NCBI GenBank assembly: GCA_945861415.1
Contig: CAMAUV010000003.1
Coordinates: 64,781 to 128,780, forward strand
DNA from: Akkermansia muciniphila
Lineage (GTDB): Bacteria > Verrucomicrobiota > Verrucomicrobiia > Verrucomicrobiales > V1-33
DNA: 64,000 nucleotides
Direction of reading: 5' to 3'
Below the pieces are notes generated by a model. That model did not search any database and had not been told where the DNA came from. It was given only the letters and a program-made list of their open reading frames with translations. Of the stretch, positions 22,661-42,888 are shown one piece after another; the stretch's first letter is position 1; each line of letters starts with the position of its first letter. A program made the translations under genes and the position numbers.

Positions 22661-22857
22661 GGCGGAGGACGGGCCGGAAGGGGATAGTGGAAGGAAAGCG
22701 CCGGGGAGCAAATGGGAAGTAACTCCCTTGTCCCCTTTTTAGACCACCACCGCCCCTGCGGCGTTCAATACTGCCCATCCCGCGCCTAGCGGACGGATTT
22801 CCTTCACAACTTGCGCAGGATGCGTGCAGTCCCCTGCTTGACGGTCCTTGCCGCCCA

Positions 22858-24939: not shown

Positions 24940-25014
24940 CCCCGCTAAAAAGCGCAGGCACGCACCCGCGGCAACTTGAAAGCATCGCCCGGCTACGGAC
25001 AAGCAACGGAATTC

Positions 25015-25791
25015 TCAGCCAATGGGCTGCGTCAGCCTAGGACGTGGAGTCAGAATTTCGGCCCCATCCGCAGTGACGACCACCGTGTGCTCGAAGTGAG
25101 CACTGGGCTTGTGATCGCGCGTGACTGCAGTCCACCGGTCGCCCAGCACATTCACTTCGCTGACTCCCATGTTTACCATCGGCTCAATAGCGAGCACCAT
25201 GCCCGGCTCAAGACGCAGCTTGATCTTGCCGTTGTCGAAGTTCGGAACTTCCGGCTTTTCGTGAAGCTTGCGGCCCACTCCGTGACCCACGAATTGCTCG
25301 ACCACAGTGTAGCCGTAGCGCCTCACGAGCTTGTCCACACTGCCGCACAGATTGCGGAGCGGTTCCCCGGGGCGGGCATGACTGATGGCCACCTGCAGCG
25401 ACTCCTCCGTAACACGAATGAGCTGGTGCACCTCAGGACGGATCATGCCCACGGGCACAGTCGTCGCGTTATCCCCAATCCAGCCGTTCTTGATGATACC
25501 GACGTCAATTTTGACGATATCCCCGTGCTGGATCAGCCGGTCTGATCGGCCAATACCGTGCACCACCTCATGATTCAGCGAGATGCAAATCTGGCCGGGA
25601 AAGCTGCGGTAGCCAAGAAAAGCGCTCCGGCAGCCGAGATCACTCATGAACTGGGCGGCTCCGCGGTCGACCTCCAGGGTGCTGACCCCCGGCCGCACGA
25701 GCGCGGCGGTCAGACGCAAAACCTCCGCTGCGGTGTGGCCCGCCTCCCGAAGTCCATCAAGTTCGGCTCCCTTCCGGATGGGGACCTTCAT
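25015..25791 (-). CDS. map: Type I methionine aminopeptidase
   Basis: CISLNHEVVHGIG, DIVKIDVG, FVGHGVG, LAIEPM and HFEHTV metal-ligand blocks. The start overlaps the secY stop (ATGA). Confidence 0.9.
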   Translation of the reverse strand: MKVPIRKGAELDGLREAGHTAAEVLRLTAALVRPGVSTLEVDRGAAQFMSDLGCRSAFLGYRSFPGQICISLNHEVVHGIGRSDRLIQHGDIVKIDVGIIKNGWIGDNATTVPVGMIRPEVHQLIRVTEESLQVAISHARPGEPLRNLCGSVDKLVRRYGYTVVEQFVGHGVGRKLHEKPEVPNFDNGKIKLRLEPGMVLAIEPMVNMGVSEVNVLGDRWTAVTRDHKPSAHFEHTVVVTADGAEILTPRPRLTQPIG

Positions 25792-27332
25792 TTACTCTGC
25801 TCAGCGTTAGCAGCCCTCTTCTCTTTGACGGTTACCTGCTTATAAATGGCGGCAGAAATGCCCACGAGAATCAGCAGCGCGAGAACTGCGTAGAGCAGAA
25901 CCACACGGCTCGTATTGGCAGTGATGGACTCACGGGAGGTCCCGTCTCCTTCATAACGCCCGCGGATCCGGCCTTTGCGGAGGAATCCGTCATAATTCCG
26001 CTGGATCAGGTGAGTCTCAACCTGACGCATCAGATCCAGAAGCACGCCCACCAGAATCAAAATACTCGTACCGCCGAAGAATTGGGATGCCTGCGGGGGC
26101 AAAATATCGCGCCAGTAATACGTCATGACCTGAGGAATGATAGCGACGAAAGAGAGGAAGGAAGCGCCTGCAAATGTCAGGCGGCTCATTGTATGGTCAA
26201 GGAAGTCAGCTGTAGGCTTACCGGGCCGGATCCCCGGCACATAACCACCGCTCGATTTGAGATCTTCAGAAATTTGCGTAGGCTGAAACATGGTCGCCAC
26301 CCAAAAATACGCGAAGAAGAAAATCAGAACCAGTTCAATTCCCCAATAAATAGGTCCAGCACTGCCCATCAGGCTCTGGAAACTCATGACCCAGTCGGCA
26401 TCTGGCCAGAAGAGGCCAAGAATCATCGGGGGAAATCCAATAATGGCGGAGGCAAAAATGATCGGCATGACGCCGGAATAGTTCAGGCGAATAGGCAGGT
26501 GGGTGGATTGTCCCCCCATTACTTTTCGTCCGACCATACGCTTGGCATAGTTGATCGCGATCTTGCGTGTAGCTTGGGTGATGACGATAATGCCAGCAAC
26601 GCTGATGACGAAGAGACAAATCAAGCCCACAAGGATCATCGCCTTGGTCGGATCGCCTTCACGAATCAGATTCTTGAAGGTGTTCACCAGCGCGAAAGGC
26701 AACTCGGAGAGAATGTTGATCGAAATGATCAGTGAAGTTCCATTGCCAATTCCGCGTTCGGTAATCTGCTCACCCAGCCACATCAGGAACAGGGTGCCGG
26801 TGGTCATGATAATGACCGCCATGGTATAAAAGCCCCACGAGGGATTGCTTACCAGTTCCACGCCGGCCTTTTTGACATAAGCATCCATTCCTCCGAGGAA
26901 GAAGTTGCCCTCTGGGTTTACAAGGCCTTTGGCCATCATATAGCCCTGAACGATACAGAGCAGAATGGTGACATACCGGGTGTATTGCGTAATCTTTTGC
27001 CTGCCGCCGGCTTCCCTAGAGAGTTTGCTCAGCTTGGGCACCACCGCGGTTAGCAACTGCACCATGATGGAGGCGCTAATATAAGGCATGATGCCGAGAG
27101 CGAGGATGGAGCAAGAGGCGACCACGCCACCCGAGAACGCGGTGATCAGGCTGTTGAGCGCATTTCCGGCACCACGGTCCACATCGTCTAGGTAACCTTG
27201 CACCACAGCCGGATCAACGCCCGGCATAGTAATGGCCGCGCCAATGCGCACCACCGCCAGCATGGCGAGAGTGAAGAGCACACGGTGGCGAAGTTCGGGG
27301 ACCTTGAAGATATTGGCGAAGGCGGAAATCAT
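25788..27332 (-). CDS. secY: Preprotein translocase subunit SecY with a C-terminal extension
   Basis: Canonical SecY from MISAFANIFKVPELRHRVLFTL to ..LIQRNYDGFLRKGRIRGR, followed by about 55 extra residues. Sits in the spc-operon position. Confidence 0.95.
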   Translation of the reverse strand: MISAFANIFKVPELRHRVLFTLAMLAVVRIGAAITMPGVDPAVVQGYLDDVDRGAGNALNSLITAFSGGVVASCSILALGIMPYISASIMVQLLTAVVPKLSKLSREAGGRQKITQYTRYVTILLCIVQGYMMAKGLVNPEGNFFLGGMDAYVKKAGVELVSNPSWGFYTMAVIIMTTGTLFLMWLGEQITERGIGNGTSLIISINILSELPFALVNTFKNLIREGDPTKAMILVGLICLFVISVAGIIVITQATRKIAINYAKRMVGRKVMGGQSTHLPIRLNYSGVMPIIFASAIIGFPPMILGLFWPDADWVMSFQSLMGSAGPIYWGIELVLIFFFAYFWVATMFQPTQISEDLKSSGGYVPGIRPGKPTADFLDHTMSRLTFAGASFLSFVAIIPQVMTYYWRDILPPQASQFFGGTSILILVGVLLDLMRQVETHLIQRNYDGFLRKGRIRGRYEGDGTSRESITANTSRVVLLYAVLALLILVGISAAIYKQVTVKEKRAANAEQSK

Positions 27333-27893: not shown

Positions 27894-28020
27894 GGGTAAA
27901 TGGATTATTGATGGTTTGACTGACAATCCCGAGGGGACCGGAGGCTGCAAAGGGGAAAGGAATTCTTTTAACTTTCGCGCTTTAGAGGGTTCAGGCCATG
28001 AATGCGGCCAGTCCGGCGGT

Positions 28021-28551
28021 TTAGGGCTTGTCTGATTTGAGCTTTCCGCGGGCGCTCAGGAACTGCTCGCGGGTGCGGAGTTGAAGAAGCGCATCCAATG
28101 TAGCTTTCACCACATTGGCCGGGTTCTTAGACCCGAGGCTCTTAGCGAGGATATCCTTGACCCCGGCGGCTTCCACCACAGCACGGACGGCGCCGCCGGC
28201 GATGATTCCTGTTCCGGGGCTGGCTGGCTTGAGGAGCACGTGGCCGCCCCCAAACTCGCCCGTCACCTGATGGGGGATTGTGTTGTTGCGAAGGCTCACG
28301 CTCTGCAGCGCCTTGCGGGCGGCCTCGCTGGCTTTCTTGATGGCGTCGGATACTTCATTGGCTTTGCCGAAGCCGTAGCCAACGCGCCCCTGACGGTCGC
28401 CGGCAACAACCAGCGCCGAAAAGCTGAAACGGCGTCCGCCCTTCACAACTTTGGCGCACCGGTTGATGTGCACGACCTTCTCGGCCATGTCAGGACGGTC
28501 AGAGCCGGAGAAGCCCTGAACGGTATCGGTAGTAACTGTTTCTGTGGACAT
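28021..28551 (-). CDS. rpsE: 30S ribosomal protein S5
   Basis: [42 protein letters not shown]. Operon position. Confidence 0.95.
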
Positions 28552-28561
28552 GGTGAGATGA

Positions 28562-28912
28562 TTAGAATTGGAGACCGGCAGTACGGGCAGCGTCGGCCAG
28601 AGCCTTCACTTTGCCATGATAGATATGGCCGCCACGGTCGAACACAACGTTCTCGATGCCTGCCGATTTCGCACGTTCTGCGACAATCTGGCCGACTTTG
28701 ATGGCGCTGGCGATGGTGGCTCCACTGCCCACGCCTTCGACGTGAGTGCTGGCACTGGCTACGGTGACTCCCTTTACGTCGTCAATCACCTGAGCATAGA
28801 CATGCTGATTCGAGAAGTGAACGGCGAGGCGGGGGCGGGCTTGAGTGCCCAGCACCTTGCGGCGAATACGTTTGTGGATCCGTTGACGGATTTCTTTGCG
28901 TTTAATGGTCAT
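28562..28912 (-). CDS. rplR: 50S ribosomal protein L18
   Basis: [20 protein letters not shown]...[23 protein letters not shown] 28912 is preferred over tracked 29050. Confidence 0.95.
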
Positions 28913-28943
28913 TTGCCAAAAAGAGGTTGGTGTTCTTAAGCGG

Positions 28944-29480
28944 TTACTTGACCTTCTTGCCTTCCTTGCGGCGGATCTGTTCACCAGCATAGCGGACTCC
29001 CTTCGCCTTGTAGGGCTCAGGACGATAGTAATTGCGGACGTCGGCGGCAAACTGGCCCACGCGCTGCTTGTCGATCCCCTCGACCTTGATCTTGGTGTTA
29101 TCCGTAACGGTCACCTTGATATCGGAAGGAATGGGGTGAAGCAGCGGGTGGCTGTATCCGAGCGAGAGGTCGAGGGCACTGCCCTTAACCGAAGCACGAA
29201 AGCCGGTGCCGTGAATTTCGAGATCTTTGACGTAGCCTTCGCTGACGCCCTTGATCATGTTGCCAACTAGGCGCTGGCTGGTGCCGTGGAGCGCCTTCTG
29301 GAAACGGTCTTCTCCGGAACGGCTGAAGGTCAATGTGCTGCCTTCCGTCTTCATGGTGATGCCGGCGGGCAATTTGTGGCTCAGATTGCCCTTAGGGCCT
29401 TCCACCGTGATGTTACCATCGTCGTTTTTGATGGTGACCTTGGCGGGGAGGATGATGGATTTGTTACCTACTCGAGACAT
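28944..29480 (-). CDS. rplF: 50S ribosomal protein L6
   Basis: [18 protein letters not shown]...[22 protein letters not shown] 29480 is preferred. Confidence 0.95.
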
Positions 29481-29502
29481 GGTGTCGATTTGCGTTGGGG
29501 GG

Positions 29503-29901
29503 TTACCAAACGATGGCGAGAAGCTCACCGCCTACGCGCTGCTTCTTGGCCTGCGAGCCGGACATCACGCCGCGGCTGGTGGAGAGAATGGCAATGCCGA
29601 GGCCACCCAGCACACGGGGGATTTCATCCACCTGCACATATTGACGGCGACCAGGCTTGCTGACGCGCTTCACTTCGGTGACGACGGCGCGGGTTCCTGT
29701 GAACTTGTTCTTCACCTTGATGACCGGGTGGGCACCAGTGGTGTCGACTTCGTAGGACCAGATATAACCCTCCTCTTGGAGGATTCGGGCGAGTTCCGCC
29801 TTGAGGCGGGAAAACGGTGCAGAGAACTCCTCTTTGCGTGCCCGGCTGGCATTCTTCCAGCGGGTGAGGAAATCGGAAACGGGATCGGAAAGTGCGGCCA
29901 T
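29503..29901 (-). CDS. rpsH: 30S ribosomal protein S8
   Basis: DPVSDFLTRWKNASRARK...ILSTSRGVMSGSQAKKQRVGGELLAIVW. Confidence 0.95.
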   Translation of the reverse strand: MAALSDPVSDFLTRWKNASRARKEEFSAPFSRLKAELARILQEEGYIWSYEVDTTGAHPVIKVKNKFTGTRAVVTEVKRVSKPGRRQYVQVDEIPRVLGGLGIAILSTSRGVMSGSQAKKQRVGGELLAIVW

Positions 29902-29933
29902 AGTCGCGGAGACGGATAGTTGTTCGGTAGGGT

Positions 29934-30515
29934 TTATGCGGCGGCCTGATCCAGCTTCGTCGATGCAGGCTTGCTATCGCGGAAGGGCATGCCCATAGCG
30001 CGCAGCAGTTCACGGCCGGCGTCATTGTCGTTAGCGGTGGTGACAATACAAATGTCGAAGCCCAACTGGCGCTTCACTTTGTCGATTTCGATTTCAGGGA
30101 AGATGGACTGATCGGAAATACCAAGGGTGTAGTTTCCGCTGCCGTCAAAGGCCTTTAGGCTGACGCCGCGGAAGTCACGAACCACGGGCAGCGCCATTTT
30201 GATCAGACGCTCGAGGAATTCCCACATCATCTTCCCGCGCAGTGTCACCTTGACGCCGAGAGGTTCACCCTGACGGAGCTTGAAGTTGGAAATCGCCTTG
30301 CGGGATTTGGTGATGATAGGCTTTTGTCCTGTAATGGTGCGGACGTCATTAACGGCGTCCTCGACAGCCTGCTTGCGGTCCGCAGCTTTACCGAAGGAGC
30401 AGTTCACGACAATCTTTTCGATCTTCGGCACCTGATGGATATTGGTGACACCAAGCTTCTCCTTGAGAACCGGAATCACGTTATTAAGATAGTGTATTTT
30501 GAGAGCGGGTTCCAT
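29934..30515 (-). CDS. rplE: 50S ribosomal protein L5
   Basis: NIHQVPKIEKIVVNCSFG...VRDFRGVS..FDGSGNYTLGI. Confidence 0.95.
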   Translation of the reverse strand: MEPALKIHYLNNVIPVLKEKLGVTNIHQVPKIEKIVVNCSFGKAADRKQAVEDAVNDVRTITGQKPIITKSRKAISNFKLRQGEPLGVKVTLRGKMMWEFLERLIKMALPVVRDFRGVSLKAFDGSGNYTLGISDQSIFPEIEIDKVKRQLGFDICIVTTANDNDAGRELLRAMGMPFRDSKPASTKLDQAAA

Positions 30516-30536
30516 AACCGGACGATGGGTGAGAGG

Positions 30537-30824
30537 TTAGGATTTATTTTTTTTGGCTCTGGCCGGCGCTTTTTTCTCCTTCGCAGGAGCTTCGGATAGG
30601 CGGACCTTGGAGAGATTGATGGGACCTTCGCTCTCAATAATTCCCCCCTGAGGGTTGTTTTGAGAAGCGCGTTTGTGCTTTTTGATCATTCGCAGTCCTT
30701 CGACAATCACGGTGCCCTTTTTCGGGGAAACCGCGAGTACTTTGCCGGACTTACCCTTGATGGACTCGTGACCGGAAATGACCGTCACATTGTCGCCTTT
30801 TTTGACGTGAGCTTTGCTTGGCAT
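30537..30824 (-). CDS. rplX: 50S ribosomal protein L24
   Basis: KOW motif [26 protein letters not shown]. Operon position. Confidence 0.95.
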
Positions 30825-30827
30825 GGC

Positions 30828-31193
30828 TTACAGAACCTCCGGTGCGAGGGAAATGATTTTCATGAAGTTCCTGTCACGCAGCTCGCGGGCCACCGGCCCA
30901 AAGATGCGTGTTCCTTTCGGATTCTGGTCCTTGTCGATCACAACGATGGCGTTGCTGTCGAACCTGAGGACACTTCCGTCATCACGGCGGATGGGGAATT
31001 TTGTGCGGACGACAACGGCTTTGACGACCTCTCCTTTTTTGACGCTGCCGGTGGGACTGGCTTCACGGATGTGTGCCGTGATGATATCGCCGATCACGGC
31101 AACGCGCGAGCGTTTACCGAGAACGCCAATCATCTTAGCAACACGGGCTCCCGTGTTGTCAGCCACCTGCACCTTGGATTCCATTTGAATCAT
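30828..31193 (-). CDS. rplN: 50S ribosomal protein L14
   Basis: [22 protein letters not shown]...[24 protein letters not shown]. Confidence 0.95.
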
Positions 31194-31238
31194 GGTAATA
31201 TATAGTTGGGATGTGGTTTGGCTTTCGAGTGAAAGAAA

Positions 31239-31517
31239 TTAGTGCTTCAGCACCTCGACGAGGCGCCAGCGTTTGAGTTTGCTGAGGGGACGGCATTCCA
31301 CGACGCGGACACGATCGCCGACTTTGGCTTCGTTTTTCTCGTCCTCGGCGTAAAGCTTGGTGGTCTTCTTGATGATTTTGCCGAATTTAGGGTGCGGCAC
31401 GCGGCGGACCACGCCAACGACGATGGTTTTGTCCATCTTGTCGGAGACGACAACGCCGACGCGGCTTTTGCGGCGGCCACGGTCAGCGGCGGGTGAATTG
31501 GAAGCGTTTTCGGACAT
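31239..31517 (-). CDS. rpsQ: 30S ribosomal protein S17
   Basis: [45 protein letters not shown]. Confidence 0.95.
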
Positions 31518-31550
31518 GGGAATGATTCCTTGGAAAAGTTAGCAGCGCGA

Positions 31551-31760
31551 TTATTTCGCAGCGGCCGCCTTCTTCGCAGCCAGTTCGTTGATGACAGTTT
31601 CAATGCGGGCGACCGAACGGCGGAGCACCCTGATGCGGGCAGGATTCTCTAACTGACCGCTCTTTTGCTGAATGCGGAGATTGAGCATCTCCTGCTTCAT
31701 GCTGCGGCGGGCGTCGGCGAGGTCCCCCACCGACTTGGCGCGAATGTCTTTGATCTTCAT
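31551..31760 (-). CDS. rpmC: 50S ribosomal protein L29
   Basis: 69 aa, MKIKDIRAKSVGDL..LNLRIQQKSGQLENPARIRVLRRSVARI. Confidence 0.95.
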   Translation of the reverse strand: MKIKDIRAKSVGDLADARRSMKQEMLNLRIQQKSGQLENPARIRVLRRSVARIETVINELAAKKAAAAK

Positions 31761-31781
31761 GGCAGTATCGGAAAGAGTGGG

Positions 31782-32201
31782 TTAGGCGTTAGCGGAACGG
31801 CGGACGAAGCGGCAGGGCACTCCGAGTTTGGCTGCCGCGAGTCGGAAGGATTCCTTGGCAAGGGATTCGGGCACACCGGCAACTTCGAAGAGCATATTGC
31901 CCGGACGCACCACGGCGACCCAGAACTCAGGAGCACCTTTTCCTTTGCCCATCCGGGTTTCCGGCGGTCGGGCCGTTACTGGCTTGTGAGGGAAAATACG
32001 GATGAAGACCTTGCCCTTACGCTTGAGGTTACGGGTGATGGCCACCCGGCAGGCCTCGATCTGGTTGTTTTTGATCCATCCGCGACCGAGGACTTGGAGT
32101 CCGTATTCGCCAAAGGCGACGGTTGTCCCGGTTTGGGCATTGCCGGAACGGCTGCCACGGTGGGACTTGCGGTATTTAACTCGACTGGGAAGCATCGCCA
32201 T
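31782..32201 (-). CDS. rplP: 50S ribosomal protein L16
   Basis: [18 protein letters not shown]...[21 protein letters not shown]. Confidence 0.95.
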
Positions 32202-32247
32202 AACTTATCGGACTGGCTTGAGATTAGATTGGAAGGGTGAGAATGAA

Positions 32248-33081
32248 TTATTGGGCTGAAGGCTCCTCGGCGGGCGCAGGGGCTGTTACTGCCGGTGCAG
32301 GGGCTGTTACTGCCGGTGCAGGGGCACCGGGACCACGGCCACGGCCGGGGCCACCGCGGCCTCTGCCGCCACCGGGACCGCCGCGACGGTCACCGTCTTT
32401 GCGATCGCCGCGCGGGGCGCGACGGGCTTGCTGGCTGGCCTGGACTTCGCCTTCCGCGTTAACCACACGATTGACCCAGCACTTGATGCCGATTCGACCA
32501 TAAACGGTATGTGCCTCGCAGAATCCGTAGTCAAGCGGCGTGCGCAGTGTTTGGAGAGGCACTTTGCCTTCGCGATACCACTCAGCACGGGCGATGTCTG
32601 CACCACCGAGCCGGCCGGCGACGCGGATCTTAATGCCGAGGGCTCCGAATTCCATGGAAGTCTGGACGGCGCGCTTCATGGCGCGGCGGAAGGAAATACG
32701 GCGCTCAAGCTGCACGGCCACGTTTTCAGCAACCAGTTGGGCGTCGAGTTCAGGGCTCTTGATTTCAAAAATATCGATTTTGACCACCTTGCCCCCGGAC
32801 ATTTTGCTGATGTCGGCGTTCATCACGTCGATTTCCGCGCCGCGCTTGCCAATCACCAGACCCGGACGGGCCGTGAAAAGGGTAACACGGATGCTGTTCC
32901 ATGCACGTTCAATGACGATCCGGGAAACTGCGGCAAACTGGAGTTTGCTCTTCAGATATTGACGAATCTTGATGTCGCTGTGCAGGTACTCGGGAAACTC
33001 CTGACGTCCTGCGAACCACTTCGAGCGCCAGTCTTTGTTAACGGCGAGGCGGAAACCAATCGGATTTACTTTTTGTCCCAT
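32248..33081 (-). CDS. rpsC: 30S ribosomal protein S3 with an RGG/Pro-Ala-rich C-terminal tail
   Basis: MGQKVNPIGFRLAVNKDWRSKWF, KH and S3-C domains, then a roughly 65-aa tail. Confidence 0.95.
   Translation of the reverse strand: MGQKVNPIGFRLAVNKDWRSKWFAGRQEFPEYLHSDIKIRQYLKSKLQFAAVSRIVIERAWNSIRVTLFTARPGLVIGKRGAEIDVMNADISKMSGGKVVKIDIFEIKSPELDAQLVAENVAVQLERRISFRRAMKRAVQTSMEFGALGIKIRVAGRLGGADIARAEWYREGKVPLQTLRTPLDYGFCEAHTVYGRIGIKCWVNRVVNAEGEVQASQQARRAPRGDRKDGDRRGGPGGGRGRGGPGRGRGPGAPAPAVTAPAPAVTAPAPAEEPSAQ
32276..32324. repeat. 21-bp tandem repeat (2 copies plus a partial third) inside the rpsC tail
   Basis: GCAGGGGCTGTTACTGCCGGT occurs at 32276-32296 and 32297-32317, then GCAGGGG. On the minus strand it encodes APAPAVT-APAPAVT-APAPA. 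Confidence 0.9.
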
Positions 33082-33113
33082 AAAGAAAATTGAGGCGGAT
33101 TGAAGGGGTCTGA

Positions 33114-33458
33114 TTACTCGGCGGATTTTCCGTCGGAGACGACCACAAGAATGTGGGAGGAAGGTTTGCGGATGGGGTTGGCGGAGCCGCGGGCCATCGG
33201 TTTGATGCGCTTTTGGACAGGACCGGTGTTGGCGACGGCTGTCTTTACGAAAAGGCTGTCGACACTAAGGTCGTGGTTGTGCTCAGCGTTGGCCACTGCG
33301 GACTTGAGTGTCTTGCTAAAGAGGTGGGCGGCCTTTTTCGGTGTGAAGTTCAGGATATTGAGAGCTGCCGAGACAGGCAAACCTTGGATTTCCATGGCTA
33401 CTTGGCGCGCTTTGAGCGGCGAGATGCGGGCGTATTTGGTAAGGGCTCGTACTTCCAT
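33114..33458 (-). CDS. rplV: 50S ribosomal protein L22
   Basis: MEVRALTKYARISPLKARQVAMEIQG...RIKPMARGSANPIRKPSSHILVVV. Confidence 0.95.
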   Translation of the reverse strand: MEVRALTKYARISPLKARQVAMEIQGLPVSAALNILNFTPKKAAHLFSKTLKSAVANAEHNHDLSVDSLFVKTAVANTGPVQKRIKPMARGSANPIRKPSSHILVVVSDGKSAE

Positions 33459-33476
33459 GATGTGCGGGCAGTAAAT

Positions 33477-34262
33477 TTACTGTTTAGGAGATGGGTTGGT
33501 AACTTCTGGCTTCACGGCGTCGCCTGCGCGCAGGGCGGTAGCGACTGAACCGGTAATGAGCAAACCGCTGATGCGGTCGCGGACATCGACGATAAGACCG
33601 TTGGCAATAGAACGGTCGGCACGGACAACGCGCAAAGGGATGCCCATGCGCACTCCAGACTGGCGCCCGACATTGATCACGGCCAGCCCAATGTCGGGCT
33701 TGTAGGAGACCACACGGGCGGCTTCAAGAGAAACTGCATCCCCGGAAGTACTCTTTTTAACGGAAACAACGTTTTTGATAGCCTCTTCCAAGCCACCTTT
33801 GAGAGGTGCAGAGCCAGGGTTGGACATATGGGCCGCCGCGGCTTCTGCCAGACGGCTACTTTTTTCTGCGAGATCGAGGCGATCTTTTTCAGTGGCCCGA
33901 AGATCGGCCACGGCTTTCAGTAAACGCTGCTGGAGAGAACGCTCGTCGCCTTTAATGGCGGCGACACCGATCGCTTCCATTTGCAGTTTCAGTTGTTCGT
34001 AGTGCTCGCGCAGTGTTTCCAGTTCAAGGTTGGATGTAGCCAGTGCTTCGCACACCGAAACGAAGCGCTTTTGCTCCTCACCGGAAACGGCCTGAGTTTC
34101 TACCGGCGTGGAGGCAGGTTTGGTCGTTACCTCGGCTGTCGGCAGGGGCGCTCCCGGAAGCAAAATCTCGTCCTTAGGCTGCTGCGCTATCGACAAATCA
34201 GCCCATGCCACTGCGAGAGCAGCGGAAACACAGATTGAGATTTTGACGATAGACGAACGCAT
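33477..34262 (-). CDS. Hypothetical exported coiled-coil protein inserted between rpsS and rplV
   Basis: 261-aa ORF on the same strand as the operon, with 12-nt and 18-nt spacers to its neighbours. It has N-terminal MRSSIVKISICVSAALAVAWA, a long L/E/A/K-rich helical segment and a C-terminal beta-rich block (AVINVGRQSGVRMGIPLRVVR..GLIVDVRDRISGLLI). No family recognised. Confidence 0.7.
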   Translation of the reverse strand: MRSSIVKISICVSAALAVAWADLSIAQQPKDEILLPGAPLPTAEVTTKPASTPVETQAVSGEEQKRFVSVCEALATSNLELETLREHYEQLKLQMEAIGVAAIKGDERSLQQRLLKAVADLRATEKDRLDLAEKSSRLAEAAAAHMSNPGSAPLKGGLEEAIKNVVSVKKSTSGDAVSLEAARVVSYKPDIGLAVINVGRQSGVRMGIPLRVVRADRSIANGLIVDVRDRISGLLITGSVATALRAGDAVKPEVTNPSPKQ

Positions 34263-34274
34263 GAAGGAAAAGTT

Positions 34275-34553
34275 TTACTTGGTAACCTTGGCGGTGTGAG
34301 CCCCGTGACCCTTGAAGATACGGGTAGGAGAGAACTCACCGAGTTTGTGACCGACCATGTTTTCAGTCACATAAACGTTCACGAAGTCCTTGCCATTGTG
34401 GACGAGGAAGTTGTGACCTACGAAGTCGGGCGTGATCATCGATGCGCGGGCCCACGTCTTGATCGGACGCTTTTGACCGGCTTCGTTGAGCTTGTCGATT
34501 TTGATCAGGAGCTTCTGATTGACGAAAGGTCCTTTTTTGAGGGAGCGGCCCAT
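34275..34553 (-). CDS. rpsS: 30S ribosomal protein S19
   Basis: [16 protein letters not shown]...[29 protein letters not shown]. Confidence 0.95.
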
Positions 34554-34587
34554 GAGGATAAGTGGTTAGTTCCTTGATTGAGGTGGA

Positions 34588-35433
34588 TTAGCCGTTCTTT
34601 TTGGCATTGCGGCGCTGAACGATGAATCGGTCAGTCTTGTGATGCTTTTTGCGGGTCTTTTGGCCCTTCGCGTGGCCCCATGGGCTGAGAAGGTGCTGGC
34701 GACCACCACCAGACTTCGAACGACCTTCACCACCGCCGTTGGGGTGGTCGACAGGGTTCATGGTCATACCGCGTACGGTTGGACGAATGCCCTTCCAGCG
34801 GGTACGGCCGGCTTTGCCAGAAACAACGTTCATGTGTTCGGAGTTTCCGATCACACCGACCGTGGCGTAGCACTTAATGTGCACGCGGCGTATTTCGCCG
34901 GAGGGCATCTTAAGCAGAGCATAGTCACCTTCGCGGTTATTCAGCATAGCGGACTGCCCGGCGGCGCGGGCGACACGGCCACCCTGGCCCGGTTTGAGTT
35001 CAACGCAGTGAATCGCGGTTCCGAGCGGAATGGAGGAAAGAGGGAGGGCGTTGCCAACGGCAGGAGCGGCTTTCTCTCCGGCGCTAACGGTAGCTCCAAC
35101 TTCAAGGCCCACGGGGGCAATGATATAGGCTTTGGTGCCATCCTTGTATTCCAGAAGTGCGATGCGCGCACTGCGGTTGGGATCATACTCTACGGAAACC
35201 ACTTTGGCCGCTTCGTCGCGCTTGAGACGCTTAAAGTCCACCATGCGGATCTTCTGCTTGTGACCGCCGCCGATGTGGCGGCAGGTAATCACGCCCGTGT
35301 TGTTTCGTCCGCCGGTCTTCTTCTTGGTGAAGAGAAGGGACTTCTCGGGTTTCTTCTTCGTCAGGCTGGAGTAGTCAGGCCACTCCTTGTAACGGTTGGA
35401 AGGGGTAATGGGATTGAAAGTCTTGAGTGCCAT
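34588..35433 (-). CDS. rplB: 50S ribosomal protein L2
   Basis: [22 protein letters not shown]...[15 protein letters not shown]. Confidence 0.95.
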
Positions 35434-35470
35434 AACGTTAGGTCAGCTCGGCGTTGAAAAGGAGTGGGCG

Positions 35471-35755
35471 TTAGGTGAGGTCGATTTTTTCACCGGGGGC
35501 GAGCCGGACGATAGCCTTTTTCCATGAGGAAGTGACGCCAGCCTGAGCAGTGCGCTTGCGGCGGGCTTTTCCGTCATATCGCATGGTGCGGACGTGATCC
35601 ACCTTCTTGCCAAAGATGGATTTCACCGCCTGAGCGATTTCCAGTTTGTTGGCCTTGGTATCGACTTCGAACACGTATTCGTTGTTCAGCTCGGTGGCCA
35701 GAGCGGCCTTCTCGCTGAGACGGATGTTGCGGATGATTTGATAGACGTCTTTCAT
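35471..35755 (-). CDS. rplW: 50S ribosomal protein L23
   Basis: 94 aa. IRNIRLSEKA...FEVDTKANKLEIAQAVKSIFG. Abuts the rplD stop. Confidence 0.95.
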   Translation of the reverse strand: MKDVYQIIRNIRLSEKAALATELNNEYVFEVDTKANKLEIAQAVKSIFGKKVDHVRTMRYDGKARRKRTAQAGVTSSWKKAIVRLAPGEKIDLT

Positions 35756-36366
35756 TAGGCGGTCCTCCGGGCGAGGGTTTCCATAGCGTCAGCGGTTACG
35801 ACGATCTTGCGGTAGTTGAGCAGATGAATTACGTTGGCCTCATCAGCAGTCATGAGCAGGGCGGCAGCATGATTGCGGGCGGCGCGATAGGTGAGTTCGT
35901 CAAAGGCAGCCGCGATGATCAGGACCTTGGAGGCCTCGCCAGCGAGGGCGGCCAACTCCTTCAAGAAGCTTGCGGTGCGGCCGTCTTTAACTGTAAAGGT
36001 ATTGACGGTGAGCACGTCTCCGGCCTTGATACGCTCGGAGAGGGCTTTGCGGAAGGCGAGTTTTTTCGTCTTCTTGGAAACTTTCTTCGAGTAATCGCGG
36101 GGCTTCGGGCCGTGAGCCGTGCCGCCGCCAACACGGGTTGGGGAGCGCTTTTCACCCATGCGGGCGTTACCGGTACCCTTCTGGCGATACATTTTCTTGT
36201 TGGAGCCCGCGACTTCGCCGCGGCGCTTGGTGCAGGCGGTGCCGCTGCGGCCGTTAGCACGGATGGCGGTCACGGCATCGTGAACGGCTTGGGTGCCGCG
36301 GCCGTTTTCAATCACACCAATTTTGGCGGATTTCGCGGCGTCTAGAGTAAGGACTTGAGCTGCCAT
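35755..36366 (-). CDS. rplD: 50S ribosomal protein L4
   Basis: ..[36 protein letters not shown].. Operon position. Confidence 0.95.
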
Positions 36367-36388
36367 GGTAGGTTACAAATCGTGAATG

Positions 36389-37036
36389 TTACTTGGCGGC
36401 GGGGGCCGGCTTTTTCTTGGCCGGACGAACGATCACAAGACCGCCTTTGGGGCCGGGAATACTGCCGCTGATGAGGAGGATTTGATCTTCCGGACGTGCG
36501 GCCACGACCTGAAGATTTTGCACCGTGCGATTGTCGACCCCCATGTGTCCGGGCATACGCTGGTTCTTCCAGACGCGGCCGGGAGTGAGTCGGCATCCGA
36601 TAGCGCCTGTGCGGCGGTGCATCATGGAACCGTGGGTCTGACGCTGACCGGAGAAGTTGTAACGCTTGACGACGCCAGCAAAACCGCGGCCCTTGGTAAC
36701 ACCAATGACGTCTACCCACTGTCCCTGGGCAAATTGGTCTACGTTGAGTTGGGTGCCGGCGGCGGGGGCGTCGGCTTCCACTCGGAACTCGCGAATATCA
36801 TACTTCGGAGTCGCGTTGTTCTTGGCGAAGTGGCCGGTTTGCGCCTTGTTGATTCGGCCGGGCTTCTTTTCACCGATGCCAACCTGCACAGCGGTGTAAC
36901 CGTCCTTGTCGGCGGTTTTAACCTGAATGATTTGATTGTCGCTGACATCGACGACGGTAACGGCGGTGGCCTTACCGGTGGCGTTGTCATACACATGGGT
37001 CATGCCCAGTTTTCTGCCGAGGAGTCCGAGGCTCAT
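36389..37036 (-). CDS. rplC: 50S ribosomal protein L3
   Basis: MSLGLLGRKLGMTHVY...GVTKGRGFAGVVKRYNFSGQRQTHGS. Confidence 0.95.
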   Translation of the reverse strand: MSLGLLGRKLGMTHVYDNATGKATAVTVVDVSDNQIIQVKTADKDGYTAVQVGIGEKKPGRINKAQTGHFAKNNATPKYDIREFRVEADAPAAGTQLNVDQFAQGQWVDVIGVTKGRGFAGVVKRYNFSGQRQTHGSMMHRRTGAIGCRLTPGRVWKNQRMPGHMGVDNRTVQNLQVVAARPEDQILLISGSIPGPKGGLVIVRPAKKKPAPAAK

Positions 37037-37077
37037 ATTCGGGTGACGAGTAAATTGTTAGGTGAAGGGAATGAAAA

Positions 37078-37386
37078 TCAGATCTTGATCTGAATATCCA
37101 CGCCGGCGGGAAGGTTGAGTTTTTTCAGTTCGTCGACAGTGCGGGCTGTGGGGTCAACGATGTCCATGAGGCGCTTATGAGTGCGCATCTCGAACTGGTC
37201 AGCGGATTTTTTGTCCGCGTGGACCGAGCGGTTGACGCTGAACTTTTCGATGCGGGTCGGCAGAGGGATAGGGCCTGCGACACGGGCACCAGTGCGTTTC
37301 GCTGTTTCCACGATTTCATGCACGCTCTTGTCGAGAACGCGGAAATCGAAGGCGCGGAGGCGGATGCGGATACGCTGATTTTGCAT
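37078..37386 (-). CDS. rpsJ: 30S ribosomal protein S10
   Basis: [47 protein letters not shown] 37386 is preferred over tracked 37422. Confidence 0.95.
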
Positions 37387-37408
37387 GGTAAAACGGTTGG
37401 GTTGAAAA

Positions 37409-39580
37409 TTATTGCTGGCCACCGCGACGATTGCCGCCGCGCTGTTCCACGATTTGTTCGACGATGTTGTTCGGGACCGGATCGAAGTGGCTGGGGGTCA
37501 TACTATAGTTGGCACGGCCCTGAGAAACAGTACGGATGGCAGTCGAATAACCGAACATTTCAGCCAGCGGCACGTCGGCGCGGATGATGGCTGCGTTGTC
37601 ACGGGACTCCAAACCGCTGATCTTTCCGCGGCGTTTGTTGAGGTCTCCCATGATATCACCTTGGTAGTCTTCCGGGGTCGTCACCTCCACAGCCATGATC
37701 GGCTCGAGCAACTGAGGTCCGCACTTTTTCATGGCTTCCTTGAAGGCAAAAATGCCCGCCATTTTAAATGCGTTTTCGTTGGAGTCCACATCGTGGAAGG
37801 ATCCATCGACGAGCTCAACATGAACATCGACAACAGGGTAACCGGCAACCACGCCATTTGTCATGGCATCCTCGATACCTTCGTAGGCTGGCTTCTGGAA
37901 TTCTTTAGGAATAGCCCCGCCCACGATCTTGTTTTCGTAGGTGAAACCCTTGCCCTTTTCGTTGGGCTTAACGTTGATCACGACATGCCCATACTGACCG
38001 CGTCCGCCGGACTGCTTGACCAGCTTTCCATGCACGTATTCGGCGGCCTTGGTGATCGTTTCACGGTAAGCGATCTGCGGCTTGCCGGAGGTCACTTCTA
38101 CTTTGAATTCACGCTTTAGGCGGTCGCAAATAATTTCGAGGTGCAACTCGCCCATACCGGCGATGATCGTCTGTCCCGTCTCCTCGTCTGTACGGACGAT
38201 GAAGGTAGGATCCTCGTCAGAGAGACGGGAGAGGGCGATGGCCATCTTCTCTTGGTCCGGCTTGCTGTTGGGCTCGACGGACATGCTGATCACTGGATCC
38301 GGGAAGGTCGGGGGCTCAAGCAGCATCTCGCGGTCTTCGTTACAGAGCGTATCACCGGTGCGGACGTCTTTGATACCCACGATAGCAGCGATGTCACCGG
38401 CGTAGCAGGTGTCGATATCTGTGTGTTGCGCGGCCTGAATCTGAATCAGACGGCCCACACGCTCACGTTTGCGGGTGCGGGGATTATAAATAGTGTCACC
38501 CTTGGTAACGGAACCGGAGTAAACTCGGAAGAAAACGAGTTTACCCACAAACTTGTCGGACCAGAGTTTGAAAGCTAGAGAACAGAACTTCTCATGATCG
38601 CTCGGCGCCGCCTCAATTTTGAGATTTTCATCGTCCGGGTCTTGACCCATCATCGGCTCTACGTCGAGAGGTCCCGGCAGGTAGTCCACCACTGAGTCCA
38701 TGAGGCCCTGCACGCCTTTATTCTTGAAGGCGGAACCACCGACGACGGGCACAATCTTGTTTGCGATGACCGCGCGGCGTAGACCGGCTTTCACGTCCTT
38801 CACATCAATGGGCTTCTCTTCGAGGAACATCATGCCGAGTTCATCGTCCACATCGCAGAGGGACTCTTTCAAATACTCGTAAGCGAGGTCCGCCTGAGCT
38901 TTCTGTTCTGGCGTGAGCGGTTGGCACTCGTAGGTCGAACCGAGTTTGTCGTTGTCGGAATATATGATGGCCTGCATGCCCACAACGTCGATTTGACCTT
39001 TGAGCTGGTCTTCAGCGCCGATGGGAATAAGGATCGGGCAGGCACGAGCACCGAGTTTGTTGCGGATGTCATCGACAACGCGGTCGAAGTTGGCGCCAGT
39101 TCGATCCATCTTGTTCACGAACGCCATCCGGGGCACCTTATATTTGGTGGCCTGACGCCAAACAGTCTCGGATTGAGGCTGAACACCGGCAACACCGCAA
39201 TACACAAGAATCACACCGTCGAGAACGCGAAGGGAGCGCTCCACCTCTGCCGTGAAGTCCACGTGCCCGGGGGTATCGATGATGTTGATCCGATGGTTGA
39301 TCCCCTCAAACATCTTAAACACACCGGGTGTAGGCAACTGCTTCCAGCTGGCGGTCACAGCAGCAGAAGTAATCGTGATGCCGCGTTCCTTTTCCTGCTC
39401 CATCCAGTCGGTGGTGGCGGCACCATCGTGCACCTCACCGATTTTGTGGATCATGCCGGTGTAGAACAGAATACGCTCCGTGAGAGTGGTCTTACCGGCG
39501 TCAATGTGCGCGGAAATACCAATGTTACGGGTGTGCTCCAGAGGAAACTGGCGCTTGGGGCTGTTCGGATTGACGGACAT
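37409..39580 (-). CDS. fusA: Elongation factor G
   Basis: [32 protein letters not shown] and NKMD. Full five-domain length (723 aa). Lies between rpsG and rpsJ. Confidence 0.95.
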
Positions 39581-39615
39581 TCTTCGGGAAAAGGTGAAAA
39601 AAGTTTTGGTAAGGA

Positions 39616-40089
39616 TTACCAGCGGAAGTGGGCAAAGGCGCGATTGGCCTGAGCGGTCTTGTGCATGTCATCACGCTTGCGGATGGCATTGCCCTGGTTA
39701 GAGGCGGCATCACGGATTTCGTTAGCCAGCGCTTGGTGCATCGGAGTGCCCTTCTTACTACGGGCAAAATTGATGATCCAGCGCATCGCAAGGGACTCGG
39801 ATCGGTCTGGCGCGACTTCCAGCGGCACCTGATACGTCGCACCGCCGACACGGCGGGCTTTCACTTCGAGGCGCGGTTTGGCATTTTCCACAGCGCGATT
39901 GATGACTTCCAGCGGGTCAACGGCTTCGGATTTTTCGTTCACCTTGTCGATGGCGGCGTAGAGGATGCGCTCCGCGATGGAACGCTTGCCGGAAGCCATG
40001 AGGCGGGTGATAAACTTGGCCACGAGGGCACTGTCGAAGCGTGAATCCCGCTGTTCGATTTTCTTATATACGCGCTTTCTGCGAGCCAT
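39616..40089 (-). CDS. rpsG: 30S ribosomal protein S7
   Basis: MARRKRV...[15 protein letters not shown]...NRAFAHFRW. Confidence 0.95.
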
Positions 40090-40126
40090 AAGCCTGTGAG
40101 TAAATTAGTTGGGTTAAAATGCGGGG

Positions 40127-40546
40127 TTACTTCTTCTTGGCCCCGCCCTTACCGGCGGCGGCGGCGGCTTGGCCCGGTTTCGGGCGTTTGGCACCATATT
40201 TAGAACGGCCACGGCGGCGCTTATCCACTCCGAGGCAGTCCAGAGAGCCACGAACGATATGATAGCGAACACCGGGAAGGTCCTTAACACGACCGCCGCG
40301 AACGAGGACGATGCTGTGCTCCTGGAGGTTGTGGCCTTCGCCGCCGATGTAGGCGATCACTTCAAAACCATTCGTCAGGCGCACCTTGGCGACTTTCCGG
40401 AGAGCCGAGTTGGGCTTTTTCGGCGTACGTGTCATCACCTGAAGGCAAACCCCGCGGCGCTGAGGGCAGTCTGCAAGAGCCGGCGATTTGGACTTCGTCG
40501 CTTTGTCACGACGGCCTTTATTGACGAGCTGATTGATGGTTGGCAT
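40127..40546 (-). CDS. rpsL: 30S ribosomal protein S12 (short Ala/Lys-rich C-terminal tail)
   Basis: [13 protein letters not shown]...[36 protein letters not shown]. Confidence 0.95.
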
Positions 40547-40911
40547 GGCTAGTTAAACTTTAAGGTATCTTCGTTGCATAAGAGATACCGGGCGAGCCAC
40601 AGCCATGCGCCAACCACACACTTGATGGGTAGGACAGCCTGTCACACATAGCAGCGTCTTTTCCGGTGCTGCTTCCGATAAATCCTATGCACCCTGGCAA
40701 AATGCGGCGGGCAGGAAGGAGGGGTGAGTCTGGCGCGTCAATTTCATCCCGCAACTGAAATTTCGATCTTTTTAGAAAAATTTTACCGCCCCACAGGATT
40801 GGGCCAAGGAGAGTGATAGCCCCAAAGATTGGGAGCACGCCGGTGCATCTTTGGATTCTGAGTCTCAACTTCGTCTCAAGCGGTAAACAGAGTCCAATTC
40901 GATCAACTGCC

Positions 40912-42888
40912 TCAGCCCAGCGCTGCCTTCACCGCATCCGCCGTCATTCCCAGTTCCTTCATTACGGTGTTGCCGGGGGCGCTGATGCCGAAGCGGTCGA
41001 TACCGAGGACTGCGCCTTGGGTGCCTACGTATTTCCACCAGAGGCAGGTGACGCCGGCTTCGATTGCGATGCGTTTGGTGCAGCTCGCGGGGAGGACTTC
41101 GTCTCTGTAAGACTGGGGCTGGCGGTCGAAACGCTCGAAGCACGGGAGGCTGACGACGCGGACGCCGGGATGGCCTTTGGCGGCTTCGACGGCCCACTGA
41201 ACTTCCGAGCCGGTGGCGAGGACAATGGCTGTAAGCGGGGCGGTTTCCTTGATCAGGATGTAGCCTCCTTTGAGTGTGCCATCCCGGCGGACGGCGGCAC
41301 TGGTGAAGCCCATGAGCGGCAGGTCCTGACGGCTGAGGGCGAGGAGCGTGGGGCCATCGGCGCGGCTGAAGGCGGCGGCAAAGGCGGCGGCGGTTTCCTC
41401 GGCATCGGCTGGGCGGATGACGTCGAGGTTGGGGATAACGCGGAGGCCGCTCACGGTCTCCACAGGCTGGTGCGTGGGGCCGTCTTCACCGACGCCGACG
41501 CTGTCGTGTGTGAAGATGTAGGTGACGGGTAGCTTGGCGAGGGCGGCGAGGCGGATACTGGGGCGGCAGTAGTCGGCGAAAACGAGAAAAGTCGCGCCGC
41601 TGGCGAGGAAGAGGCCGTCGTAGGCGATGCCGTTGCAGATGGCGCCCATGGCGTGCTCGCGGATGCCGAACCAGATATTGCGGCCCGTGGGGTTCGCTAC
41701 GGAGTAGTCGCCGCCGTCCTTGATGTAGTTTTTGGTGGAACCGAAGAGGTCGGCGCTGCCGGTGATGATCTGAGGGACGGCTTTGGCGATGTGGTTGAGG
41801 ATTTCGCCGCCGCAATTGCGCGTGGCGGATTTGCCCTCAGAGGGATATTCGGGGACGAGCTTGAGCAGGTCCTCGGCTTTCAGGCCACCAGTGCGTGCGG
41901 CATGCAGCTCAGCGGCCAGCGCGGGATTCGCGGCGGCCCATGCTTCGAAAGTCTTCTGCCATTCGGCGTGCGCGGCGGCGCGCTTGGATTTCACATCGGC
42001 GAAGTAGGCGCGCACATCGTCGCTGACGTGAAAATGCGTGCCCTCGGGAATGCCGAGCGCCTTTTTCGCTGCGTCAGCGAATTTCGCGCCGCCCTCACCG
42101 TGGCCCTTGGCGGTGCCAGCGACTTCCGGGATGCCTTTCGCGATGATCGTCTTCGCCACGATGATCTTCGGCTTGCCGTTGTCGTTCTTTTTCGCGGCCT
42201 CCACGGCGGCGGCGATAGCGCCAAGATCGTGGCCATCAATGGTAACAGCGTCCCAGCCGAGAGCTTCGTATACGGCGTGTGTGTTTTCGCTCTGCGTCAC
42301 ATTCGCCATGGCATCGAGCGTCACGTCGTTGCTGTCGAAGATCAGAATGAGGTTATCGAGCCCGCTGTGTGCGGCGAAGGCCACGGCTTCGCGCGCCACG
42401 CCTTCCTGGAGGCATCCATCGCCGGCAAGGGCGATGACGTGGTGGTCGATGATCGTGTGCTGCACGGTGTTGTATTTCGCCGCGGCCATCTTTCCGCTAA
42501 GCGCATAGCCCACGGCATTGCCCACGCCCTGACCCAGCGGGCCGGTGGTGCATTCCACGCCCTCGGTCTCATGGAACTCCGGGTGGCCCGGGGTGAGCGA
42601 GTGCAGCACACGGAAATTTTTCACCTCCTCCAGCGACAGATTATAGCCCGCGAGGTGCAGCCATGAGTAGATAAACATGGAGCCGTGGCCCGCGCTGAGG
42701 ATGAAGCGGTCGCGGTTCAGCCATTTCGCGTCGCCCGGGTCGCACTGGAGCGCGGAGCCGAAGAGCACTGCCCCGATTTCTGCCGAACCGAGCGGCAGGC
42801 CGAGGTGGCCAGACGAGCATTTGTGGACGGCGTCCATGGCGAGACCACGGGCTTCATTGGCGGCTTTGGCGAGGATGGCGGCGTTCAT
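40912..42888 (-). CDS. tkt: Transketolase
   Basis: [46 protein letters not shown] and [16 protein letters not shown]. Confidence 0.9.

Follow-up and report, generated by a model that had tools for sequence, protein, structure and literature searches.

Introduction

The genes for the ribosomal proteins S19 and L22 make up one of the most stable gene adjacencies in bacterial genomes. Genes for non-ribosomal proteins and membrane proteins are well known inside ribosomal operons, for example secY, which has a known function and ends the spc operon in nearly all bacteria. Of the small beta-barrel domains considered here, one belongs to FlgT, a flagellar H-ring protein of Vibrio and a feature of the Vibrio-type sheathed flagella; others, the N-terminal "crown" barrels of F1, V1 and T3SS ATPase subunits, are packed side by side into rings. 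In TsaP, two beta-rolls of the FlgT-C kind, the CI and CII domains, are arranged as spokes around the PilQ secretin (bioRxiv 10.1101/2020.05.29.123786).

Here we analyse a gene, termed X, that lies between rpsS (S19) and rplV (L22) in a 64-kb stretch of DNA (the whole of which we call the window). Its barrel type and the occurrence of membrane protein genes in ribosomal operons are already known; what is new is the X family with its architecture, and a lineage-wide interruption of the S19-L22 pair that goes with a strict linkage to rplV. We found no description of the arrangement or of the family in the literature on Verrucomicrobia, on S10 operon gene order and on the S19/L22 interval. The PVC "signature protein" of the literature is a different, small protein.

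Results

Gene X lies within the S10 cluster

On the minus strand of the window, the genes run in the order fusA, S10, L3, L4, L23, L2, S19, X, L22, S3, L16, L29, S17, L14, L24, L5, S8, L6, L18, S5, L15, SecY and Map (Table 1). The initial annotation of this DNA had noted a 261-aa ORF between rpsS and rplV, on the same strand and separated from them by 12 and 18 nt; these gaps are exact, and the N-terminal sequence that it quoted for the product is indeed that of the ORF. Scans for sigma-70-like promoters and intrinsic terminators found zero sites in 32900..34800 on both strands, and an Rfam scan of 28000..42000 found no RNA family. Because the gaps are tiny, promoter- and terminator-like signals are absent from the scanned region and the gene order is conserved (see below), we infer from the sequence, in agreement with the initial annotation, that X and the ribosomal protein genes almost certainly share a transcript.

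Table 1. Gene X, its protein segments and its neighbours in the window (positions are those of the window).
Feature	Position	Strand	Basis or remark
Gene X, 261-aa precursor	33477..34262	minus	ATG-initiated ORF; homologues; dN/dS 0.14-0.30
Predicted signal peptide, residues 1-26	34185..34262	minus	MRSSIVK, then hydrophobic core ISICVSAALAVAWA, then predicted SPase I site between SIA and QQ
Acidic Pro/Thr/Ala-rich linker, residues 27-60	34083..34184	minus	variable; predicted disordered
Helical region, residues 61-171	33750..34082	minus	AlphaFold, block-averaged pLDDT 74-93
C-terminal six-stranded beta-barrel, residues 176-256	33495..33737	minus	domain model, Foldseek, profile
rpsS (S19), upstream neighbour of X	34275..34553	minus	Pfam Ribosomal_S19, E=1.3e-36
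rplV (L22), invariant downstream partner of X	33114..33458	minus	Pfam Ribosomal_L22, E=3.9e-36
rpsS-X spacer AACTTTTCCTTC	34263..34274	minus	12 nt; without Shine-Dalgarno, promoter or terminator
X-rplV spacer	33459..33476	minus	18 nt
SecY	25788..27332	minus	end of the ribosomal cluster holding X
Map	25015..25791	minus	end of the ribosomal cluster holding X

X is a genuine, conserved gene

A first protein search with X returned 37 close homologues, every one of them "hypothetical" or unnamed. When 1.84 billion cluster representatives were searched with a profile, we obtained 639 matches at E<=1e-3 and 328 at E<=1e-10, each match being the representative of a 50%-identity cluster; the best 150 of the 639 were mostly 230-340 aa long, and the family members that were read whole or at the N-terminus share a common layout with X. 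Single-protein searches of Pfam, NCBIfam and PDB sequences gave nothing above threshold, and thus no clear match to a characterised family; as initially annotated, the product is not a ribosomal protein.

In ortholog pairs with unsaturated dS, dN/dS was 0.14-0.30 for X vs 0.02-0.13 for L22, and the differences between X and its orthologs at codon positions 1/2/3 (2440/1863/3299) show a third-position bias. X is therefore under purifying selection, and this coding signature, together with its conservation in relatives, upholds its status as a coding gene. Over 100 independent contigs carry the S19-X-L22 arrangement, one being a 6.3-Mb chromosome (L013) and another 1.36 Mb long (L007), which rules out an assembly artefact.

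A non-functional ORF (one present by chance, a decaying insertion or an artefact of assembly) is a reading with practically negligible probability. It could draw on the homologues of X, all unnamed or "hypothetical" and without database annotation, and on the absence of a Shine-Dalgarno sequence at X. This absence is, however, uninformative, since none of the 16 cluster genes examined (16/16) carries a Shine-Dalgarno sequence, which also suggests that initiation proceeds by another route in the source organism; short-range re-initiation after the upstream stop codon is possible in this cluster. The reading is refuted by a family of hundreds of members with invariant residues, by a dN/dS far under 1, by a very confident model of the barrel domain (pLDDT 94.8) and by the occurrence of one and the same arrangement in more than 100 independent assemblies, complete chromosomes among them.

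A protein search with the C-terminal profile returned short products only. Of these, P0221, P0230 and P0223 turned out to be the S19-X-L22 gene called in truncated or split form; in two of the three cases, fragmentation affects the other ribosomal genes of the contig as well. No stand-alone barrel form of X was seen among the three.

X combines a predicted signal peptide, a linker, a helical hairpin and a barrel

A full-length AlphaFold model of X was built on 37 homologues (mean pLDDT 78.6). It shows an N-terminal helix (residues 9-24), a stretch of pLDDT <50 over residues 20-57, two helices that form a hairpin (61-104 and 107-147), a third helix (152-171) and beta strands over residues 183-252 (pLDDT >90). 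The sequence and this model agree with the signal-like N-terminus, the Pro/Thr-rich linker and the helical region of about 110 aa that had been proposed for the protein.

The most conserved parts of X are the hairpin tip and the barrel. Among the helical segments, the tip (residues 91-117, LKLQMEAiGvAAiKGDERSLQQRLLKA) is the best conserved: at least 80% of 139 members retain each of E96, L98, G99, R113, L114 and A117. Alignment A1 of the family has invariant columns in the helical region. In the barrel, more than 90% of members retain each of G199, G203, G207, P209, R214, R228, G233 and D248. The linker varies in length among family members and has an acidic pI of 4.4, and the pI of the basic barrel is 10.7 (net charge +3.8).

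The N-terminus of X has the layout of a Sec signal with an SPase I site, that is, a positive n-region, a hydrophobic h-region and small residues at positions -3 and -1, and a signal-like pattern was detected heuristically in 117/139 members. Both the signal segment and the linker drift, with mean top-residue frequencies of 0.25 and 0.22, respectively, across 139 non-redundant members. Position -1 is Ala in 95/139 members and Gly in 19/139 (Ala, Gly or Ser together in 118/139), and position +1 is Gln in 80/139 and Glu in 15/139 (together 95/139). An SPase I site is predicted at this point because positions -1 and +1 are conserved while the surrounding segment drifts; the signal peptide would thus be cleaved after the conserved Ala and the protein exported. 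We also considered X as a lipoprotein (an SPase II substrate) and rejected this possibility for want of a conserved Cys: Cys11 is not conserved, and a lipobox-like pattern occurs in only 6/168 members.

The barrel resembles the FlgT-C/TsaP ring domain

Modelled as a separate domain, the barrel reached a pLDDT of 94.8 and a pTM of 0.83. With this domain model, Foldseek placed the FlgT structures 3w1e and 8z5n at ranks 1-2 (TM 0.71-0.73), F1-type barrels next (TM 0.65-0.70) and MreC (2j5u) at rank 26 (TM 0.54 over 57 columns); with the full model, it returned FlgT (8z5n and 3w1e) and F1-ATPase N-terminal barrels at E ~1e-4. FlgT_C was also the commonest Pfam match in the family, found in 16/52 members at E<=1 (best E=5.5e-4). 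The gathering threshold of this Pfam family (PF16538) is 27 bits, which none of the 52 members was seen to reach and under which the window protein also falls (13.5 bits, E=0.1); for ten distant members, Pfam yielded nothing beyond coiled-coil noise and faint matches to FlgT_C. When the C-terminal profile was compared with the PDB, TsaP (3jc8 chain Ta) was matched at E=4.2e-6 (29.5 bits) over its residues 319-356 and 367-401, in its second FlgT-C-like domain. MreC was not significant in the profile comparisons with the PDB (E=0.64 with the C-terminal profile, and 1.9). MreC was absent from the 25 most frequent Pfam families listed for the 52 members, and the window protein had no match to Pfam MreC at E<=1.

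Pfam, the profile search against the PDB and the fold search, three independent lines that are each weak, agree with one another, and on this basis sequence and model indicate that the barrel of X is remotely related to the periplasmic ring domain of the FlgT-C/TsaP type. Judged from its sequence, X as a whole protein is neither FlgT nor TsaP, because it is without LysM and without the FlgT N and M domains (LysM, FlgT_N and FlgT_M gave no Pfam match in X or in the members tested). The C-terminal beta block had been likened to the small barrel of MreC-type envelope proteins: a small beta-barrel it appears to be, but not one of the MreC type, given the ranks of FlgT and MreC in the fold search (1 and 26) and the profile E-values of TsaP and MreC (4.2e-6 vs 0.64). 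The X profile also aligned locally, over 33 residues, with the first lipoyl strands of a MexC-like adaptor (E=7.7e-5) and more weakly with AcrA and MexA (E ~0.4); this is a shared strand-turn-strand motif (vR..isG.v....G..V..GD), not adaptor architecture.

X is fixed upstream of rplV

We examined 109 loci from genome and metagenome collections, a few of which are redundant; the metagenome scan used the tighter subgroup alignment A4. Ribosomal protein genes flank X in all 109 loci. L22 lies directly downstream in 95/95 loci with enough downstream sequence, S19 lies directly upstream in 69/73 assessable loci, and the gap between the stop codon of X and the start of L22 was 0-22 nt in the 26/26 loci measured. 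The S19-X-L22 order holds from ~100% down to ~22% protein identity, and members that are 22-35% identical to the window protein keep it. At these loci, X is tied to rplV more tightly than to rpsS.

Taxonomy was taken from submitter labels, chiefly on the adjoining S19 proteins; these read Verrucomicrobiales, Verrucomicrobiaceae, Chthoniobacteraceae and "Spartobacteria", and by these sequences the X family has so far been found only in Verrucomicrobiota. One locus, on a 2.3-kb contig, carries a Pyrinomonadaceae label and is probably mis-binned. The placement of X is old and fixed across at least two orders. The ORF had been described as inserted; it does interrupt the S19-L22 pair, but it is not a local insertion, being ancient and fixed in at least two orders.

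The four exceptions to the S19 neighbourhood (L001, L015, L016 and L020) belong to one clade with a split operon. No S19 or L2 gene was found upstream of X within the ~2.3-4 kb examined at these loci, and X heads a unit that continues with L22, S3, L16 and onward. A fifth locus, L011, groups with them, and its contig ends ~230 nt upstream of X. The five X proteins are 52-71% identical to one another and 35-42% identical to the rest; because they form one clade by identity, the S10 cluster was probably split in a single event. The break fell between S19 and X, leaving X with L22. An invariant promoter-like motif (cTTGCG-N17-cTA(T/G)ATT) lies upstream of X in all five clade loci; it is absent from the window, which therefore provides no evidence for an internal promoter here.

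X is probably less abundant than ribosomal proteins

Codon adaptation, scored against the ribosomal genes of the window, was 0.555 for X vs 0.625-0.825 for 15 ribosomal and EF-G genes (leave-one-out), and SecY and Map (both 0.59) were close to X. In almost all of the listed pairs, X also had a higher dS than L22. With the lowest codon adaptation in the cluster and a dS exceeding that of L22, X is probably made in smaller amounts than the ribosomal proteins. These two observations speak against the stoichiometric coupling of X to ribosome synthesis that had been suggested. The accompanying idea of an unusual regulatory arrangement was overstated, as secY and map also lie in the ribosomal cluster of the window.

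Discussion

With moderate confidence, we propose that X, a representative of an undescribed family whose gene is fixed directly upstream of rplV, serves a housekeeping function in the periplasm or envelope after export by Sec. X would be transcribed together with the ribosomal genes from the operon promoter, so that its mRNA level would track growth rate, as for secY, and it would be translated less than the ribosomal proteins. Removal of the signal peptide after the conserved Ala would leave Gln as the mature N-terminus, and the mature protein may be an elongated periplasmic scaffold in which the barrel acts like those of FlgT and TsaP and the conserved hairpin tip provides a second binding surface. 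The scaffold role is suggested by analogy, because FlgT and TsaP, the two characterised proteins with such a barrel, build the rings or spokes that encircle outer-membrane channels.

The strict linkage to rplV could also mean that X is a cytoplasmic factor for ribosomes, for ribosome assembly or for L22, with an uncleaved hydrophobic N-terminus that serves as a cytoplasm-facing membrane anchor or interaction helix and a basic barrel that binds RNA or a ribosomal protein. Genes in ribosomal operons usually act in translation, X precedes rplV in all 95 loci, including those where the operon is split, the charge of the barrel (pI 10.7, +3.8) would suit such binding, and the fold is also found in the cytoplasmic F1-type and T3SS ATPases. 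Nevertheless, we consider this unlikely: the N-terminus of X is laid out as a complete Sec signal in which the -1 Ala and +1 Gln persist amid drift, as selection for a cleavage site would give, the only significant sequence relative of its barrel is periplasmic (TsaP), as is its best fold match (FlgT), its codon adaptation is under that of every ribosomal protein gene, and secY and map illustrate that non-ribosomal and membrane protein genes do occur in such clusters. A different account of the linkage keeps X as a new periplasmic scaffold protein and gives a function to the placement itself, through which L22-operon synthesis would be coupled to the membrane in its translation or its location. 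In these genomes without Shine-Dalgarno sequences, ribosomes that complete X could start again on rplV after the 0-22 nt gap. Co-translational Sec targeting of nascent X would tether the polycistronic mRNA to the membrane, and X would be a lineage-specific device by which the site or rate of L22, S3 and L16 synthesis is coupled to envelope growth. We regard this further proposal as quite unlikely.

Among envelope proteins, a membrane-fusion-type periplasmic adaptor (of the AcrA, MexA or HlyD type), whose hairpin would dock on an outer-membrane channel while its barrel contacts an inner-membrane transporter, is suggested by the alpha-helical hairpin with its conserved tip and by the MexC-like match (33 residues, E=7.7e-5; AcrA and MexA ~0.4). 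That match spans a single strand-turn-strand motif, however, and the hairpin of X precedes a single barrel, whereas adaptors have the hairpin inside a lipoyl domain and carry further domains. HlyD-type Pfam families are absent from the 25 most frequent for 52 members, FlgT and F1-type barrels rather than adaptors lead the domain fold search, and a transporter gene adjoins X in no locus examined, making an adaptor very improbable. The resemblance to MreC, a cell-shape protein with an anchor, a coiled coil and beta-barrels, lies in the general outline (a small barrel with a G..GV..G pattern that follows a coiled coil and an N-terminal hydrophobic segment), to which can be added an automatic JGI label "MreC" on P0223 and P0229 and the appearance of 2j5u in the fold search, at rank 26. 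Both labelled proteins are short products, though, and P0223 comes from a split call of the S19-X-L22 gene, of which it represents the downstream half; the fold overlap covers only 57 columns at TM 0.54, Pfam MreC is unmatched, and the PDB profile gives E=0.64 and 1.9 for MreC vs 4.2e-6 for TsaP. MreC has two barrels and X has one; mreC normally resides in the mreBCD operon and not in the S10 operon, and the ribosomal flanks in 109/109 loci place X outside any mreB-mreC-mreD cluster. A divergent MreC is thus contradicted by Pfam, PDB profile, fold and gene context alike and is extremely improbable.

Whatever its role, the S19-X-L22 order can be used as a clean marker of synteny in some of the Verrucomicrobiota, a group whose envelope biology is poorly known and to which X adds a new family (predicted signal peptide, hairpin and FlgT-C/TsaP-type barrel), probably with a housekeeping function and expressed in step with growth. 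The lock between X and rplV poses a concrete question as to its cause. If translational coupling or membrane tethering of the mRNA proved true, it would constitute a new connection from ribosome production to the envelope; if the linkage is not functional, X would be a secY-like passenger, useful for annotation and unsurprising.

Compared with known systems, X shares most with FlgT and TsaP. The C-domain of FlgT (PF16538; 3w1e, 8z5n) appears to have the same small beta-barrel fold as X, and FlgT is exported to the periplasm, as is predicted for X; yet the two are only 14-16% identical, the Pfam scores of X are below the gathering cut-off, X has a helical hairpin instead of the N and M domains, and it is not linked to flagellar genes. 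TsaP (chain Ta, 3jc8/3jc9) is the only significant sequence-level relative of X among solved structures, and it is a periplasmic protein whose FlgT-C-like domains surround the PilQ secretin as spokes or rings. TsaP carries an N-terminal LysM peptidoglycan-binding domain and two such domains, whereas X has no LysM, a single barrel and a hairpin, and neither a pilus nor a secretin gene adjoins it.

The crown barrels of the F1, V1 and T3SS ATPases superimpose on the modelled X barrel with TM 0.65-0.70 and an rmsd of 2.3-3.4 A over 70-81 residues, but they are cytoplasmic and fused to an ATPase core, while X has no nucleotide-binding domain and carries a predicted signal peptide; going by the models, the likeness is at the level of the fold only. 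MreC is similar in its hydrophobic N-terminus, its coiled coil and its small periplasmic beta-barrel, and differs from X in barrel number and genomic context, the fold overlap being partial. In gene context, the closest parallel is secY (with adk/map) of the spc operon, which like X is a non-ribosomal membrane or export gene within ribosomal genes, and secY and Map share with X a lower codon adaptation (0.59). X differs from secY in that it is lineage-restricted and interrupts the near-universal S19-L22 pair.

Signals upstream of X and at the ribosomal gene starts

We found an invariant promoter-like motif, cTTGCG-N17-cTA(T/G)ATT, that is common to all five loci of the split-operon clade, in which the S10 cluster is broken up (X being the 261-aa gene between rpsS and rplV in the window). 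In alignment A5 (L001, L011, L015, L016 and L020; positions L001:3820-3870 and L011:40-100), the motif is flanked on its 5' side by an A-tract and on its 3' side by a conserved CCGCCTCCCTT tract. Some 130-250 nt separate it from the start codon of X, implying a long 5' leader in this clade. The same motif was searched for in the window and is absent there.

Translation starts were examined across the fusA-L5 cluster. None of the 16 genes is preceded by a Shine-Dalgarno-like sequence, and so initiation in this organism seems, from sequence, to be independent of Shine-Dalgarno pairing; the leaders are short and C/T/A-rich. The longest S10 ORF (114 aa) opens with a GTG and shares its first 14 nt with the 3' end of fusA. 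Because S10 is 102-104 aa long in related loci, translation may really begin at an ATG inside this ORF.

Coordinates of features in the window
Feature	Position	Strand	Description
ORF with signal-peptide-like N-terminus	14657..15694	-	SYA|QTA at end of signal-like segment
Type II secretion protein K (pseudopilin) domain ORF	21608..22711	-	domain match E=4e-9
RecG	22858..25002	-	next on strand after Map
Map	25015..25791	-	after SecY, 4-nt overlap
SecY	25788..27332	-	514 aa, Pfam match
fusA to L5	29934..39580	-	16 genes
S3	32248..33081	-	277 aa
S3 C-terminal tail	~32248..32440	-	low-complexity
L22	33114..33458		114 aa
S10-fusA overlap	37409..37422	-	14 nt

Length variation in ribosomal proteins and short homologs of X

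S3 is just 224-234 aa long in Chthoniobacterales-type loci, against 277 aa in the window. The tail of the window S3 is Gly/Arg-rich (GGRGRGGPGRGRG) and then runs into APAPAVT repeats. Both the split-operon clade and the Chthoniobacterales-type loci have a longer L22, of 150-183 aa, than the window clade, where it has 114 aa (L001 and L022-L029 compared); its extension is, on these comparisons, lineage-specific.

Homologs of X at L027, L028 and L029 measure only 78-157 aa and look like stand-alone barrels, one of them labelled 'MreC' by JGI. We see no such form of X at these loci: the short products represent the full-length gene in truncated or split calls, and at L027 and L028 further ribosomal genes are likewise broken up or missing.

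Secretion-related genes in the window

SecY carries an N-terminal extension, as its Pfam match begins only at residue 75. The ORF with a signal-peptide-like N-terminus shows the same Ala-Gln junction as X, the exported proteins of the window being too small a sample to judge a Bacteroidetes-like 'Q-rule' from such junctions. The pseudopilin-domain ORF is ~11 kb away from X, and its nearness to a protein with a TsaP-like barrel is probably a coincidence.
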